IMG/VR virus record: IMGVR_UViG_3300042691_031247
Length of the DNA stretch: 64,000 nucleotides
Source: a virus
Taxonomy: Duplodnaviria; Caudoviricetes
Direction: 5' to 3' (one strand)
In this document: one piece after another, positions 51,881 through 57,384 of the stretch
Position numbering within the stretch: position 1 is the stretch's first letter
Layout of the letters: each line of letters begins with the position of its first letter
Made by a program: the position numbers and the translations under genes
Notes under the pieces: model-generated
Seen by the model: only the letters and a program-made list of their open reading frames with translations
Told to the model about the DNA's origin: nothing
The model's database searches: none

Positions 51881-52153
51881 TTACCGGTTGAGCGTCAGAA
51901 TAAATTTTACAAACACCAGCCCCCACGCGAGCACGCCGCTGATAGCAAAAAAAACAATCACGGCGCTCAGGCTGACGAGTTTGCCGAGCTTTTGAATCTG
52001 AATGTCTTTCAACAAGCGCCACGCCTTGAGGTAATCGATCGCGCCCGGTTGGTGCGGCGGTTCCGGCGTGGGTTCCGGGGTCGGCTCTGGCGTCGCGGGC
52101 TTCTTCTTGCGCCCCAGTAGCTCATTCAGCCTGTCGAGCAGCGGATTAGCCAT
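51881..52153 (-). CDS. small membrane protein
   Basis: Start at MANPLL; PEPT repeats; C-terminal TM helix. Confidence 0.55.
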   Translation of the reverse strand: MANPLLDRLNELLGRKKKPATPEPTPEPTPEPPHQPGAIDYLKAWRLLKDIQIQKLGKLVSLSAVIVFFAISGVLAWGLVFVKFILTLNR

Positions 52154-53732
52154 GTTTTTTGCCCCAGTTCTGGATGGTGTCAAAGACATCATTGCCGTAC
52201 AGCTGCGTAGCCTTGTCGAACATATTCATCTGTGGCAGTGTTCCGGTCGCGGCTGCTTGCGCCATTTGATATCTATACTGCGGATCAAGCATCGAGCGGT
52301 ACAGATGTGACTTCTGCCGCGCGGCCAAGATGAAGTCACCGCGTTGCTTTGCTTTTAACAGATGGTCAGTGACGTTAGCGAACACCGGTTTGTTGTGGTC
52401 GTACACGATCGGCGTGCGAAAGTTCAGCAGGTTACGAAACTGCTGCGCGTACACACTGTTCTCGGCCGCTTTGATCTGCGAACCGACAACGGCTGCCGGC
52501 GCATGAAACCGAAACTTCGTCGGCGTGTGCGTGACGCCCTTGTACTTCGGCTTCGGATCGTCGACGTGCCAGTCTTGCGGTGATTGCGCGATTAATCGCC
52601 GCAGGATCTCGTGCTTGCGGTCGTATTCGCGGCGATCTGAGTGCGTTTTCGCCGCACGTAGCTCGTCGAGAATGTTGGGCTTCTTGGGTGCGGGCTCTTT
52701 TTCGGCGTCTTTTTCGATTACTTTGACTTTTTCGTAATAGGCGGGGTCTTCGGACAGATGATCTTTGGCAATTTCTTTGGCGACTTGATCATTGTTCGTG
52801 TGTTCGTGCTCATGCTGCGCTCCTTCGGCTAATGCTTTCTGAGAAATTTCCCGATCGGGAACATTGTCGGCTTTTCCACCCTGTAATAGGTCGTTCTTTC
52901 CCGAGCGGGAAAGATTTTCTTCCCGATCGGGTGTGTTGTCCCGTGCAGGCATATCGCTGGCGGCTGTTTTATGCGTTGCGGCGCAATAGCCGCTTTTTTT
53001 ACACACGCACGTCGGCGGGCAAGTGCGGGCGCCGGAGCAGTTACAGTCGTAAGTCGTGTCGTCAGCCGGTGCGCTGGCGGCTTTGAGTTCTCCCCGACTG
53101 ATGGGGTTACTGAACCTATGCTCTTCCGTCGTTTCGGCAGGGGTTTCGTAACCCTTTGACTTACCGTTGTCGAGCAGGACGCCTTTACGTCTGGCAGCGA
53201 CCGTAATGTGAAACGGGTGGTCGTCATTGGGGAGCGCCGACAGCCCGTAGCTTTTGCGCAGCGCCGAAAGTCCCGGGCTGCTGACCTGAATAGCCCAGAC
53301 CTTGCTTACGCCGTCGACATTCTTGACGTCTATCTCTTTCAGGCCGCCCAGCGTGTAGCCGAACATGTGCCCGCGCTCGTTGATCTTGTCAGCGCCGATA
53401 GATGCTACTTCAGCCGCGGTAAGGACCGATATATGCGCATTTACAAGATCGCCCTTAACGTTTGGAACGTTAAACACACCAGCCGTCGGTAATTCAGCAC
53501 CGGGCTCGGTTAGGGCGTCAAACACGCCCCGAACCAGCGCGTTCGGTACAGATAACAAAAGCCAGCCCGATTTGGCGAGATACAGCCGGCCGGCGAGCGG
53601 ATAACTTGTGGCCGCTTGCTTGTTGCCGCCGCGATAAAGCCAGCCGAGAGCGTTACCAGCGGCGTAGGCGGGGTGCTCGCGGAAGTACTGCTGGTCCCAA
53701 GCGAGCGGGTCGAGTGCTGAGAGGCTGTCCAT
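52146..53732 (-). CDS. multidomain protein with 2H phosphoesterase-like domain
   Basis: Two H-x-[S/T]-h motifs (AHISVL, FHITVA) about 75 aa apart; then a Cys-rich CNC...C...CVC...YC segment, HEHEHT...EIAKDHLSEDPAYY, and further small domains. Confidence 0.65.
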   Translation of the reverse strand: MDSLSALDPLAWDQQYFREHPAYAAGNALGWLYRGGNKQAATSYPLAGRLYLAKSGWLLLSVPNALVRGVFDALTEPGAELPTAGVFNVPNVKGDLVNAHISVLTAAEVASIGADKINERGHMFGYTLGGLKEIDVKNVDGVSKVWAIQVSSPGLSALRKSYGLSALPNDDHPFHITVAARRKGVLLDNGKSKGYETPAETTEEHRFSNPISRGELKAASAPADDTTYDCNCSGARTCPPTCVCKKSGYCAATHKTAASDMPARDNTPDREENLSRSGKNDLLQGGKADNVPDREISQKALAEGAQHEHEHTNNDQVAKEIAKDHLSEDPAYYEKVKVIEKDAEKEPAPKKPNILDELRAAKTHSDRREYDRKHEILRRLIAQSPQDWHVDDPKPKYKGVTHTPTKFRFHAPAAVVGSQIKAAENSVYAQQFRNLLNFRTPIVYDHNKPVFANVTDHLLKAKQRGDFILAARQKSHLYRSMLDPQYRYQMAQAAATGTLPQMNMFDKATQLYGNDVFDTIQNWGKKHG

Positions 53733-53746
53733 AGCGCGCTTTCAAA

Positions 53747-53818
53747 CTGCCTGAGTAGGACTCGAACCTACAACCCCAGCATTAACAGTGCCGTGCACTA
53801 CCATTGTGCTATCAGGCA
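53747..53818 (-). tRNA. trnN: tRNA-Asn(GTT)
   Basis: Cloverleaf: acceptor TGCCTGA/TCAGGCA, D-stem GCAC/GTGC, anticodon arm CGGCA-CTGTTAA-TGCTG, T-arm GTAGG-TTCGAGT-CCTAC; discriminator G; no encoded CCA. Confidence 0.95.
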
Positions 53819-53825
53819 AGATATG

Positions 53826-53975
53826 TCACGGGGTCGCGCTAATACTTGGCGTGGTCATACCTCCGACCGCGTGATGTGAAACAGCCGCATAGGCCGACAC
53901 GAGCAGCAAGAGGCAAAAAACGGCGGAAGCGCCCCACGCGGCTACGCTCAATTGTTTACGGACGGTCATTGTCAT
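53826..53975 (-). CDS. small single-TM protein downstream of a holin
   Basis: 49 aa from MTMTV; hydrophobic AVFCLLLLVSAYAAV; overlaps the holin-like gene end. Confidence 0.45.
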   Translation of the reverse strand: MTMTVRKQLSVAAWGASAVFCLLLLVSAYAAVSHHAVGGMTTPSISATP

Positions 53976-54312
53976 GCTCGTGCTCCAGTTCGCGATCACG
54001 TTCGTGCACAATAGTTACTTTGATGCCCGCTCCCGCCAACAACGAGATGGCGAGATCGGTTAAAGTTGACCCGCCCATGCCTGCCAGCACGCAAATGCCG
54101 ATCAGGCCGTAGACGTTTTCGGCTTTCCGATAGTTTTGATACCAAATCAGCGCAATGGCGAGGCCGAGAAACCCGGCGTTCAGCATGGCGCTGACCACCG
54201 CTAGTTTAGACAGTTTCTTGGCAAACCGCAAAAGCGTTGCCAGCCCGGCAAACGCAGCCGCGCCAAATGCGCTTAAAAGCACCGACAACGAATGTAATGT
54301 TTCGTCGCCCAT
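53956..54312 (-). CDS. putative holin (3-TM, LydA/HP1-like)
   Basis: 118 aa; three hydrophobic helices with small-residue motifs (AAAFAGLATLL; NAGFLGLAIALIW; GICVLAGMGGSTL). Confidence 0.6.
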   Translation of the reverse strand: MGDETLHSLSVLLSAFGAAAFAGLATLLRFAKKLSKLAVVSAMLNAGFLGLAIALIWYQNYRKAENVYGLIGICVLAGMGGSTLTDLAISLLAGAGIKVTIVHERDRELEHEHDNDRP

Positions 54313-54347
54313 GATTTGTAACCGCCTGTCATTACTCGTGTTATAAA

Positions 54348-54569
54348 TGTGTCAAAAGCCCCTGCGATCCCCTGTCCGCAGGACCTACCACGGCCGAAGC
54401 CGCGGTTCTGCAGCAACTTTCAAGGACATAATTTCGTCCCGTGTGGCATTTGCTGCTCCTCCGCCCGTGAGCCCGACAAAATCTGACCACGGAACCTGTA
54501 ACCCCCGCGGCATCCCTGCCTTGGAAGATACGCCTAACCAGCCGACCACCACGGCTAACTTTTGACACA
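54348..54569 (-). ncRNA. candidate structured non-coding RNA (~220 nt), family unassigned
   Basis: 11-bp terminal helix TGTGTCAAAAG/CTTTTGACACA enclosing nested helices, a C(UUCG)G hairpin and a GGGA-loop hairpin; G-U pairs form only on the minus strand; an upstream promoter fits the 5' end. Confidence 0.65.
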
Positions 54570-54574
54570 CCCTC

Positions 54575-54600
54575 AGTTTAACATGTTCTATCCGGCGCAA
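54575..54600 (-). promoter_or_regulatory. candidate promoter for the ncRNA
   Basis: TTGCGC...TG-T-TAAACT (extended -10) about 6 nt upstream of the terminal helix; a TTGACA also occurs at 54632-54637. Confidence 0.5.
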
Positions 54601-54648
54601 GATAATGCCAGATAAAACCGCAGCGACAAATTGTCAAAGAGCGCGCTG

Positions 54649-55101
54649 CTAAATGTACCGTGCCGGAGAATTGCTGCACAGGCCAGCTGGCTCAAACTGT
54701 TCAATCCAGCCGGGCGAAGTTTCGGGGAGAAAAGCGATCGAACGCGCTGCCAGCTCCCGCGGCGCCGGCGTCCAAATAAATTGCGCACTCGTCAGTGTTG
54801 GGGTGTCGCTGTCGAAAAACGCGTGGGCGCCGATGTTGCACAAGGCGTCGAGCGTTTCGCCGTCAAAGCAACGCGACCAGACCCGCTGCTTGGAGAAAAA
54901 CCCGGGCGGCGCAATGTTAAAGCCGCCGTCAAAGGGCAGCAGAAAACTACCCTGATAAAACACGACGTTGACGCACACGTGCCAGCCTGCGCTCAGCGTC
55001 GCCTGCAAATACGCCAGCCGGTTTTCTTTCTCCGGTTGCGCGCCGTTAATGTTGCCGAGATTGGCAATTAAAATACCGTCAAACCGCGTGTTGCGCGCCA
55101 T
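54649..55101 (-). CDS. degenerate PLC/GDPD-like phosphodiesterase-fold protein
   Basis: ILIANLGNINGAQPEKENRLAYLQATLSAGWHVCVNV matches the IAHRGN...ENxxxxIxxALxxGFDVEIDV pattern, but the catalytic residues are substituted. Confidence 0.55.
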   Translation of the reverse strand: MARNTRFDGILIANLGNINGAQPEKENRLAYLQATLSAGWHVCVNVVFYQGSFLLPFDGGFNIAPPGFFSKQRVWSRCFDGETLDALCNIGAHAFFDSDTPTLTSAQFIWTPAPRELAARSIAFLPETSPGWIEQFEPAGLCSNSPARYI

Positions 55102-55188: not shown

Positions 55189-56223
55189 TCAAAGAATCTT
55201 GGCGGCGATCAGGCATCCGCGGGCAACAGCGTGCAGCGGATCTTTTGCGTGGCGAACTTCTTTCACCGGCAACGGAAAGCCATTCTCTTCAAGCTTCTTT
55301 GTGAACATTTCCACAAAGCCTTTGGCCCGCGTCGTACCGCCGGCTACAGATATCAAAATCGGTTCTTTGAATTTGGGCAGCGCCTTGTGGTCGCGCAGTG
55401 CGGCAGCGAGCTGCTTGGTCGTGTAATCAATCAGGCGCTCGTAGTACACGCTCACAGCAGCAAGAATCGCGTTGTCGCCGCCGCCCTCGCCGATAACAAA
55501 CGTGCCATGTTCTTTTTCAGCCTGAACGACCGAGTCGGGCTCGTTCGTCGCAACAGCCGTCATACGGTCGATCCAGTCGCCAGACTTTGTCGTCGAGAAC
55601 AGCACCGTAGGCTCGCCGTTGAGCATCACGCACACGTTCACCATGCCGGCGCCCCACGACAGGCCAATACCCGTATAGTCGTCGTGCTCTAACTCCGAGT
55701 AGCACAGTGCCTCGGCCTCGTTGATGGCGCGGGCGGCGTAGCCCTGTTCGGCCAGCACGGTGCGTACTACGTCTTCGTGGTACGCAACGTCAAAATCATC
55801 GTCTTCTTGGTCGACGGGCTGCGCCGGCACGCAGAAGATCAGCTTCTCGTGGGGCGTGTTAGCTGTGCCGACCACTTCTTTGAGAATGAACGCCAGCACG
55901 CGCTTGGCCTCTTTTTCCTTGGGGCTGACAACGCCGCGGTACATTGGGCGCTTGGCAGAATCATTGCGCTCGACGGCTTTCTCGATGGCGTCTTGGCCGA
56001 GAATGATAAAACTCCCGTCGGCGTCCTTGACGAACACTTTGCCCTGCAGGCCCTTTTCGATCATCTTTGTGGCCACGGGCGTCGTCGGCTTGATGACATA
56101 GAACGCGTCGCGAAAGTCTTTGTACTGCACGTTGCCGACCGTGTGCGGCTCGGTGGTGGAGTTGGCGGCGGCGTCTTGGGCCAGCACGATAAACGATGTT
56201 CCAACGTCGAGTCCCTTGGCCAT
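55189..56223 (-). CDS. actin-like ATPase (MreB/FtsA/ParM superfamily)
   Basis: Phosphate-1 GLDVGTS, connect INEAEAL, phosphate-2 GLSWGAGMVNV, adenosine VAGGT, and AVARGCL. Confidence 0.85.
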   Translation of the reverse strand: MAKGLDVGTSFIVLAQDAAANSTTEPHTVGNVQYKDFRDAFYVIKPTTPVATKMIEKGLQGKVFVKDADGSFIILGQDAIEKAVERNDSAKRPMYRGVVSPKEKEAKRVLAFILKEVVGTANTPHEKLIFCVPAQPVDQEDDDFDVAYHEDVVRTVLAEQGYAARAINEAEALCYSELEHDDYTGIGLSWGAGMVNVCVMLNGEPTVLFSTTKSGDWIDRMTAVATNEPDSVVQAEKEHGTFVIGEGGGDNAILAAVSVYYERLIDYTTKQLAAALRDHKALPKFKEPILISVAGGTTRAKGFVEMFTKKLEENGFPLPVKEVRHAKDPLHAVARGCLIAAKIL

Positions 56224-56342: not shown

Positions 56343-56704
56343 CACTTCCCCTTTAGCTGCGCGAGCTTGGACACGGACGAATTAATATCATCCTGTGTCT
56401 GCGTGGTTTTGCCAAGTTCGAGTTGTTGCGTTTTTTGCAACGTCTCGGTGTTAATTGCGCCCACGTATTTACCTGTGTCGATTTCAATCTTGCCTTTGCC
56501 GGGCGCGCTCTCTTTCATGGCTGCGCGCAGAGTATTTGTCGCGGGAAGTACGGATGTTGTCGGCGCGTATGTCGGCACAATACCGGCCATGCGCGCCACT
56601 AGCCAGTCCAGCCGGCCGATTGCGTAACCCAGCGCCACGCTTCCGGCGACAATTAACGCTACAACAGAGTACGGCAGAATTAGCATGTTTCCGGCTTGCG
56701 CCAT
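56342..56704 (-). CDS. membrane-anchored protein in the actin-like operon
   Basis: N-terminal TM (LILPYSVVALIVAGSVALGYAIG) and a polar cytoplasmic tail. Confidence 0.65.
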   Translation of the reverse strand: MAQAGNMLILPYSVVALIVAGSVALGYAIGRLDWLVARMAGIVPTYAPTTSVLPATNTLRAAMKESAPGKGKIEIDTGKYVGAINTETLQKTQQLELGKTTQTQDDINSSVSKLAQLKGK

Positions 56705-57384
56705 CCCCGGTGTGATTTGATGCGCCCGGCGTTCACGCTGCGCATATGGCAGGCGCTAAGTCCGTTGTGGCGACAGAAGTCTTTAAGATTGTGAATGATA
56801 ACTACGTCGCCGTCAGGATTGAGAAAGTTGTACGTCTTGGCATACTTCTCGCGAATGACGTTGCGGCCTCGTTCCCGCAGCTCTTGCATACGCTGTTCGG
56901 GTATCGCGTGCACGCCGGTTTTCATCTCCGCTGATTTCGTGCCGCCGATGCTGGCCCATTTTTGCCGTGTCTCTGCGTCCATGCCAGCAAACCCCGAGCC
57001 GTTGTCGTGCGAGCGCTGGTTGGCCAGTTTGCGCTGCGCGGGCGTGAGCAGGAACCGCCCGGCTGCGTTGCGATTTAAACAGACCTCTGGGCCCAAATGC
57101 TCGGTGTCGGCGTGCGCGGTTTTAATCAGAACTGTCTCTGCCTTGGATAGCTCCGTCGCGGCTTTCTTCGATTCGCGACGATAGTCCGCGCGCAAAATAA
57201 CTTTAATAGCGTCGGCCTGAAAGTCAGCATGCGTCGGGTCGTTGTACGTTGCAAACGTAACCGGCGAACCGAAGTACTGTTGGTCTTCTTCGGGGGCGCG
57301 GTCGGTAATGCGCGAGCCGTAGTAGAACTTATACCCCAGCGACGGGTACAGGATCACGTACAGGTAGTACCAGCGTTTGCGCAT
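56680..57384 (-). mobile_element. free-standing GIY-YIG-like homing endonuclease
   Basis: YYLYVI...KFYYGSR...YFGS N-terminal nuclease pattern (Seg-like); C-terminal NUMOD/HTH-like NPDG...NLKDFCRHNGL...SHRGW. Confidence 0.7.

Follow-up and report, generated by a model that had tools for sequence, protein, structure and literature searches.

The OLE RNA, a bacterial (Firmicutes) RNA of about 600 nucleotides (nt), is co-transcribed with its multi-transmembrane partner OapA. The raiA, ROOL and GOLLD RNAs are orphan RNAs with complex folds that frequently occur close to tRNA genes in phages or prophages, and all of them are represented in Rfam. Cis-acting RNA structures of phages include the put RNA of phage HK022 and sdi upstream of the lambda holin gene S, which consist of one or two simple hairpins. 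Among the RNAs that are read by proteins, an ANGGAX hexaloop seated directly on a stem represents the high-affinity RsmE/CsrA consensus (Duss et al., PMC4005645). Here we describe a structured RNA encoded on the minus strand of a 64,000-nt stretch of Caudoviricetes phage DNA, hereafter the window, which corresponds to G000:C1:27206-91205 of the 198-kb IMG/VR virus record IMGVR_UViG_3300042691_031247. The element lies between two minus-strand open reading frames (ORFs), orf150 (54649-55101), which encodes 150 amino acids (aa), and orf118 (53956-54312), which encodes 118 aa.

The element is almost certainly a genuine, new and phage-specific structured RNA that forms the leader of the orf118 unit. 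Its status as a genuine RNA follows from the fold z-score, covariation among 52 homologs, a pseudoknot and the lack of a conserved reading frame.

Fold, conservation and distribution

For the minus strand of 54345-54570 the predicted folding energy is -98.4 kcal/mol; its z-score relative to dinucleotide shuffles is -4.25, and none of 200 shuffles folded as well. Homologs were collected with the protein encoded by a nearby actin-like gene as a handle: the loci of 80 of its 270 IMG/VR relatives were fetched, and nhmmer identified the full-length element in 67 of the 80, on the gene strand every time. A strict motif scan located it in 82 viral contigs. RNAalifold, applied to 40 unique copies, predicts 69 pairs, 52 of them with compensatory changes. 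The covariance model R1 matches the window at 54343-54572 with 240 bits and aligned 52 distinct homologs at 160-241 bits; this alignment is the basis of all covariation counts given below. Standard pairing is retained in 96.0% of its cells, and double-sided changes occur in 53 of the 69 pairs (767 cells). None of 500 column shuffles attained any of five measures of pairing and covariation, and when the 3′ partners were slid by 1-3 columns, only 35-44% of cells paired and the covariation score fell to 0.12-0.17, compared with 0.615 in register. The resulting architecture comprises nine helices arranged round a large junction and one pseudoknot, with the following elements from 5′ to 3′ (P, paired; J, joining).

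54348-54568, minus strand: structured RNA core of about 221 nt, from P1 to P1′, defined by fold, covariance model and homologs
54557-54568, minus strand: 5′ strand of P1, paired with 54349-54360; 13 of 15 P1 pairs covary
54540-54556, minus strand: P2 hairpin, AGCCG / loop UGGUGGU / CGGCU; 100% paired, 4 of 5 pairs covary
54545-54549, minus strand: 5′ strand of the pseudoknot, GUGGU in the P2 loop, paired with 54443-54447
54531-54539, minus strand: J2/3 with near-invariant GGUUAGG (invariant columns)
54499-54530, minus strand: P3, a variable 8-base-pair (bp) helix topped by P3a; 8 of 8 P3 pairs covary
54512-54517, minus strand: apical hexaloop AGGGAU of P3a on a C:G-closed stem (C-ANGGAU-G), from the homolog alignment
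54465-54492, minus strand: P4 with the invariant internal loop GUGGUCAG / CG.G, from alignment and covariation
54457-54464, minus strand: J4/5, single-stranded GGAGG (GG-N-GG); GGAGG, GGUGG or GGGGG in all homologs
54410-54456, minus strand: P5, internal loop (AAUGCCACAC + UGAAAG) and P5a; 6 of 7 P5 pairs and 5 of 6 P5a pairs covary
54443-54447, minus strand: 3′ strand of the pseudoknot, GCCAC in the P5 internal loop, paired with 54545-54549
54387-54406, minus strand: P6, a variable UUCG-capped hairpin; 8 of 8 pairs covary
54361-54382, minus strand: P7 hairpin with the invariant loop GGGGA(U); 4 of 7 pairs covary, GGGGAUC invariant
54349-54360, minus strand: 3′ strand of P1, partner of 54557-54568

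P1 is 12-15 bp long and joins both ends of the RNA. P2 is a 5-bp hairpin whose loop reads UGGUGGY across the homologs, and the internal loops of P5/P5a, AAUGCCACAC and UGAAAG, are invariant. A search of the unpaired alignment columns for further helices uncovered the pseudoknot between the P2 loop (GUGGY) and the P5 internal loop (RCCAC). It pairs in all 52 sequences and covaries at three of its five pairs (U-A/C-G/U-G; G-C/A-U/G-U; C-G/U-A/U-G), while none of 2000 shuffles matches it and slid partners pair in 20-68%.

Most of the helices had already been proposed in a first-pass annotation of the window made from its letters alone, which described a structured minus-strand RNA. The fold and the homolog alignment bear out that RNA, its closing helix GUGUCAAAAGUU/GGCUUUUGACAC (now P1), AGCCG/CGGCU (P2), GGCA-GGGA-UGCC (P3a), CCGUG/CACGG (P4), GCAGCAA/UUGCUGC (P5) enclosing GGGAC/GUCC (P5a), the UUCG-capped hairpin (P6) and CCUGCG/CGCAGG (P7), all of which are conserved with covariation. 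Two other proposals fell away: the multibranch helix GGUUC/GAACC pairs in just 67% of cells with zero covariation, and the suggested pseudoknot UCUUCC:GGAGGA pairs in 57% of cells, also without covariation, UCUUCC being the 5′ strand of the covarying helix P3.

A chance fold or a small protein gene, with no functional RNA, has a negligible probability. One frame of 75 codons (54341-54568) is indeed open across the element in the window, but 44 of the 52 homologs contain stops in all three frames, insertions and deletions do not come in threes, and the covariation is massive. A mini-ORF following GGAGG was likewise rejected, its AUG being replaced by AUA in many homologs.

The RNA is a previously unclassified family. 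At E<=10 no Rfam 15 family matches 54200-54750 or any of 12 homolog loci; the unmatched families include transfer-messenger RNA (tmRNA), RNase P, signal recognition particle (SRP) RNA, 6S, group I and II introns and riboswitches, as well as CsrB/RsmX/Y/Z, raiA and HEARO. ARAGORN reports no tmRNA. The 50,697 phage records in GenBank contain no match by DNA or by the orf118 protein. Among the genomes of about 185,000 prokaryote species a strict pattern has no matches, and a loose pattern has more than 120, of which the 80 listed all failed the covariance model (best E 0.11). A metagenome scan added 18 further copies, all of the same type, and no match to the RNA was obtained in the 21-86% complete records of five larger relatives, whose actin-like gene is about 75% identical. 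The RNA has thus been found solely in this widespread clade of uncultured freshwater phages with genomes of about 200 kb; in its own genome the covariance model detects it as a single copy.

Two comparisons with specific RNA classes were rejected. SRP RNA domain IV is incompatible with the covariation, which puts GUGGUCAG in P4 (88-92 with 112-116) and GCAGC in P5 (125-131 with 168-174), and no SRP model matches the window or the 12 homolog loci. A retron or other reverse-transcriptase-associated RNA was rejected on the neighbouring genes: orf150, orf118, tRNA-Asn and the 2H-SAK protein gene described below are all without a reverse transcriptase domain. A guide or bridge RNA for nuclease-dead TasR/IS110-like or RAMP-like proteins is very improbable. 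Its length of about 220 nt does fall within the size range of IS110 bridge RNAs; yet its unpaired segments are invariant and offer no variable, spacer-like loops, the opposite of what is expected of a guide. Moreover, the conserved loops contain no box C (RUGAUGA), box D (CUGA) or K-turn when the alignment is read against PMC12045711, and the TasR/IS110-like and RAMP-like genes are separated from the RNA by more than 100 kb. The phage genome is not enriched in complements of the conserved loops that could serve as trans base-pairing targets.

Leader position, promoter and downstream genes

The 5′ neighbours of the RNA vary across homologs, with orf150 present or absent and the actin-like gene between 40 nt and 4.3 kb away, and its 3′ neighbour, orf118, is constant. 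A search from the protein side found 74 IMG/VR loci with an orf118 relative, and in every one of them the RNA ends 15-55 nt before the gene; the 18 metagenome contigs recovered by motif, mentioned above, have the same arrangement. The RNA and orf118 therefore constitute one unit. No terminator was found between the two, and the linker varies in sequence and in length (15-55 nt). The features that surround the RNA are as follows.

54631-54639, minus strand: conserved CTTTGACAA box, in most homolog flanks and unique in the window
about 54590-54625, minus strand: variable hairpin 3′ of the CTTTGACAA box and upstream of the -10 element, from homolog flanks
54575-54583, minus strand: extended -10 element TGTTAAACT; a -10-like hexamer is present in 55 of 55 homolog contexts
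54284-54330, minus strand: hairpin of the orf118 start region (54309-54284 in the window), -15 to -27 kcal/mol across lineages
53956-54312, minus strand: orf118, 118-aa holin-like protein with three transmembrane segments and a charged C-terminal tail, the next gene after the RNA
53826-54011, minus strand: orf61, 61-aa protein with one transmembrane segment, overlapping the end of orf118; coding sequence ('..AAWGA..') conserved in many lineages
53746-53819, minus strand: tRNA-Asn(GUU), the sole Rfam 15 match in the whole window
52146-53732, minus strand: 2H-SAK/DUF5661 gene, 528 aa, starting 14 nt past the end of tRNA-Asn(GUU)

The extended -10 element TGTTAAACT, part of the first-pass annotation, gains support from its conservation. 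In 48 of 55 distinct contexts the aligned RNA is preceded, at a distance of 2-8 nt, by a TAnAAT/TAAACT hexamer, which is TG-extended in 32; the other seven contexts belong to a single sub-lineage, in which TGATAAAtT is located some 25 nt farther upstream, ahead of an extra 5′ hairpin. As judged from sequence, a sigma-70-type extended -10 promoter would let transcription begin at the foot of P1, the closing helix. Further upstream, the CTTTGACAA box possibly marks the end of the upstream transcript. In some lineages the variable upstream hairpin is continued by a U-tract that extends into the -10 element, resembling a promoter-insulating terminator. Five of the six matches to TGnTAWAMT in the window are on the coding strand (6217, 30041, 46899, 49174 and 54575, all minus), and one of these five is situated about 230 nt upstream of the sigma-factor gene, a pattern that suggests a small class of candidate extended -10 promoters in this phage.

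The promoter-proximal position is also what can be said for a cis-acting modifier of RNA polymerase, either put-like, acting on the host or phage enzyme to affect downstream termination, or a 6S-like decoy. The RNA directly follows its promoter and heads a long series of genes in the same direction, in which a tRNA gene and hairpins also occur. It nevertheless resembles neither put RNA (two hairpins, about 70 nt) nor the 6S rod with its central bubble, the Rfam 6S models do not match, and nothing ties the RNA to polymerase, which makes this explanation distinctly improbable.

Public sequencing data contain the element. Twenty-one runs share few words with a 1051-nt stretch around it, 14 of them recorded as RNA, from 10 studies, and four freshwater metatranscriptomes from four studies were compared with the element. 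Three of these runs yielded one contig each that lies wholly within the element: 185 nt (54362-54546), 175 nt (54358-54528) and 164 nt (54369-54532). In the fourth run, a 475-nt contig of a relative connects the RNA to orf118, of which it includes the first 220 nt. Three of the four runs give no cover of the flanks, a contig-based gap that is not to be read as an absent transcript. Contigs show neither ends, strand nor level, and RNA libraries may be contaminated with DNA; these data are a hint, which suggests that the element is transcribed and accumulates, with read-through into orf118.

These contigs are relevant to the idea of a stable trans-acting RNA cut from the leader, which by analogy might serve as a ribonucleoprotein scaffold or ribozyme, maybe together with the adjacent membrane protein in the manner of OLE and OapA. 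The assembly of the element without its flanks in three RNA studies fits this idea, as do the long helix that closes the 5′ and 3′ ends, a trait of stable RNAs, the complex conserved tertiary fold, and a constant neighbour that is a highly conserved multi-transmembrane protein with polar residues in its membrane segments. On the other hand, no processing site or catalytic motif could be recognised, RNA ends and levels cannot be taken from contigs, orf118 has no evident RNA-binding surface, and no partner protein was identified. We consider a trans-acting product of this kind unlikely.

In the orf118 protein, three hydrophobic segments are followed by a variable, charged tail rich in His and Asp, and the first loop is basic; polar residues within the transmembrane segments are invariant. 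There are 269 close homologs, and the identity to the window copy is 71-92% among 35 that were aligned. No sequence match was obtained in Pfam, PHROG, NCBIfam or PDB, and none of 36 family members matches the Pfam Phage_holin models at E<=1. A protein-language-model search places orf118 among Phage_holin_3 clusters (score 0.91, about 200 shared features), which is a lead rather than proof of membership. The term 'holin-like' is used because of the size of the protein, its three transmembrane segments, its charged tail and these language-model neighbours. Judged by sequence and position, orf61 probably belongs to the same unit, and the two look like a membrane-protein pair, perhaps of the holin/antiholin type. 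A conserved terminator was not found after orf118: one is present in only 23 of 47 contexts, and the region encodes the small transmembrane protein. One homolog of orf118, P0049, is labelled Sphingorhabdus sp. in NCBI and is encoded on a 202,923-nt contig; the label is either a hint of the host, a freshwater alphaproteobacterium, or the result of a phage genome having been binned into a metagenome-assembled genome.

In many lineages, though not in all, the Shine-Dalgarno sequence and start codon of orf118 are enclosed in a hairpin with codons 8-15, and the untranslated arm changes so as to match the coding arm. The hairpin might lock the translation of a toxic membrane protein. It could also act as the expression platform of a riboswitch-like cis-regulator, in which an aptamer would respond to a small molecule or ion as a readout of host state or of a signalling nucleotide, and would thereby gate the holin-like gene. 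Such a regulator would account for the position in the 5′ untranslated region with a predicted start at the foot of P1, the strict tie to one gene family (74 of 74 loci) and the multi-helix junction with its invariant joining nucleotides and pseudoknot. It is, however, a doubtful explanation: P1, at 13-15 bp, greatly exceeds in stability the P1 helices that switch in known riboswitches, the linker varies in sequence and length, neither a conserved terminator nor an anti-Shine-Dalgarno element was found, no Rfam riboswitch family matches, and the gene context points to no ligand.

The wider neighbourhood contains, upstream beyond orf150, the actin-like gene (55189-56223, minus strand; Pfam Volactin, 1.7e-62) and, 3′ of orf118, the tRNA-Asn gene followed by the 528-aa protein with 2H-SAK phosphoesterase and DUF5661 domains. 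The position of the tRNA gene varies, and in other lineages it is found 3-4.7 kb upstream of the structured RNA. The actin-like protein is highly conserved, its 270 IMG/VR relatives having 69-98% identity, and belongs to a Pfam family, Volactin, that was named for an archaeal actin; the GenBank phages with a relative are just two huge metagenomic phages, at 32% identity. A 234-aa ORF (56680-57384, minus strand) has the C-terminus of an HNH/homing endonuclease (PHROG 2081, 1.6e-10) and is patchy among relatives, as expected of a mobile endonuclease.

A candidate CsrA-binding leader

We tentatively favour the reading, which rests on motif and gene content, that the RNA is a CsrA-binding regulatory leader or decoy. 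The apex of P3a reads CA[G/U]GGAUG, an ANGGAU hexaloop directly on a C:G pair, in 50 of the 52 homologs. As in Csr/Rsm-type RNAs, GGA is presented in hairpin loops, here in the P3a hexaloop and in the invariant GGGGA loop of P7, and the single-stranded GGAGG of J4/5 is a further exposed motif of the GGA type.

The same phage carries a csrA gene, outside the window, at G000:C1:8898-9044 on the minus strand (locus L160:1357-1647, minus), which matches Pfam PF02599 with 70-71 bits. It is tightly packed behind a 296-aa ORF and encodes a protein of 96 aa with a C-terminal tail rich in Thr, Pro and Ser. Residues 1-48 align with RsmE (PDB 2JPP) and Escherichia coli CsrA, and L2, L4, R6 and R44 are kept; we take these four to be important CsrA/RsmE residues, R44 presumably being the RNA-binding arginine. 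All eight near-complete genomes that carry the RNA also encode csrA. Only four of ten partial ones do so, as expected because the gene is located about 72 kb from the RNA. In the five larger relatives without the RNA, neither csrA nor orf118 was found within the assembled parts (21-86% complete). Since the co-occurrence of csrA, orf118 and the RNA is a clade-level pattern and some of the records are incomplete, it lends weak support. A csrA-centred survey with single-sequence patterns returned close relatives only.

If this reading is correct, the element would be a protein-binding regulatory RNA whose reader is the CsrA protein of the phage, of the host, or of both. The fold would hold the P3a hexaloop, the P7 GGGGA loop and the GGAGG junction in a fixed geometry on which a CsrA dimer could dock, and the docked protein would determine how well the membrane-protein mRNA downstream is translated or how stable it is. 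Alternatively, a long-lived, stem-closed RNA may titrate CsrA during infection. In both versions CsrA activity would be coupled to the timing of the holin-like gene.

It is important to point out that several observations weigh against a CsrA link. About 72 kb separate csrA from the RNA, and the clade-level co-occurrence is weak, the RNA-free relatives being 21-86% complete. The RNA displays about three conserved exposed GGA-type sites (one optimal, one or two weaker), compared with 5-20 in CsrB/RsmZ-type sponges, and thus lacks the multi-site array that typifies a sponge. No conserved GGA covers the ribosome-binding site or start of orf118 in the linkers and starts of 48 homologs, so the classical occlusion mechanism of CsrA does not apply. 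ANGGA hairpins are not enriched genome-wide over Markov controls, and one homolog has no GGA in P3a. Finally, GGUUAGG, GUGGUCAG, AAUGCCACAC, UGAAAG and the pseudoknot are unexplained by CsrA binding; these invariant nucleotides and the pseudoknot therefore indicate an additional or different function.

A different function could also mean that the RNA, as a riboswitch or ribozyme of a new class, senses a signal or processes itself and thereby gates the holin-like gene, with the CsrA-type loop as only one of its inputs. This is an unlikely but consequential possibility: such an RNA would time or trigger lysis in response to a host metabolite or to a nucleotide signal linked to defence. Few RNA folds exceed 200 nt and combine a pseudoknot with dozens of covarying pairs, and most of those known belong to ribozymes, riboswitches and ribonucleoprotein scaffolds. 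Should the CsrA link be true, the locus would represent a Csr circuit carried by a virus, with a structured leader in place of a repeat-type sponge and possibly in control of lysis time; should it be false, the RNA would be a new orphan class with a ligand or activity worth finding. In either case the family is well defined for bench testing by its alignment, covariance model, promoter and neighbour gene.

The first-pass annotation had read the element as a novel phage non-coding RNA with its own promoter, and this part stands: the RNA covaries, has no Rfam relative, occurs in phage contigs only, follows a conserved promoter and appears in RNA libraries. The functions offered with it, namely a decoy for RNA polymerase or sigma factor, a packaging RNA and a sponge for a defence protein, found no support, and the sponge idea survives only in the form of a CsrA decoy. 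The present analysis adds the constant leader position before a single membrane-protein gene and the CsrA-type hexaloop in phages that encode csrA.

Comparison with described RNAs

Like raiA, ROOL and GOLLD, the phage RNA combines a complex fold of unassigned role with a phage context and a nearby tRNA gene; in contrast to them, it has no match in Rfam and a fixed leader position, and it is much smaller than ROOL and GOLLD. It shares with OLE and OapA the arrangement of a complex conserved RNA beside, and probably co-transcribed with, the gene of a small multi-transmembrane protein, whereas OLE is about 600 nt long, belongs to Firmicutes and is unrelated in sequence and structure. The put and sdi hairpins are comparable as cis-acting phage RNAs that follow a promoter or precede a holin start codon, but the phage leader folds into nine helices with a pseudoknot.

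Riboswitches and orphan riboswitch candidates resemble the phage RNA in their promoter-proximal 5′ untranslated position, their association with one gene family, their conserved junction nucleotides and the presence of a pseudoknot. The phage RNA differs from riboswitches in its very long P1, and neither a conserved expression platform nor a candidate ligand is apparent.

Compared with the Csr/Rsm RNAs in general, the phage RNA has a large conserved junction and a pseudoknot that are without counterpart, and no Rfam Csr/Rsm model matches it. Unlike the sponges CsrB and RsmX/Y/Z, it offers one optimal site and has no Rho-independent terminator at its end. What it has in common with RNAs bound by CsrA/RsmE is an ANGGAU hexaloop of the high-affinity form on a C:G stem, additional exposed GGAs and a csrA gene in the same genomes. 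Its position in a 5′ leader is likewise that of the regulated leaders of glgC, hcnA and moaA, the last of which shows CsrA acting on a riboswitch-containing leader.

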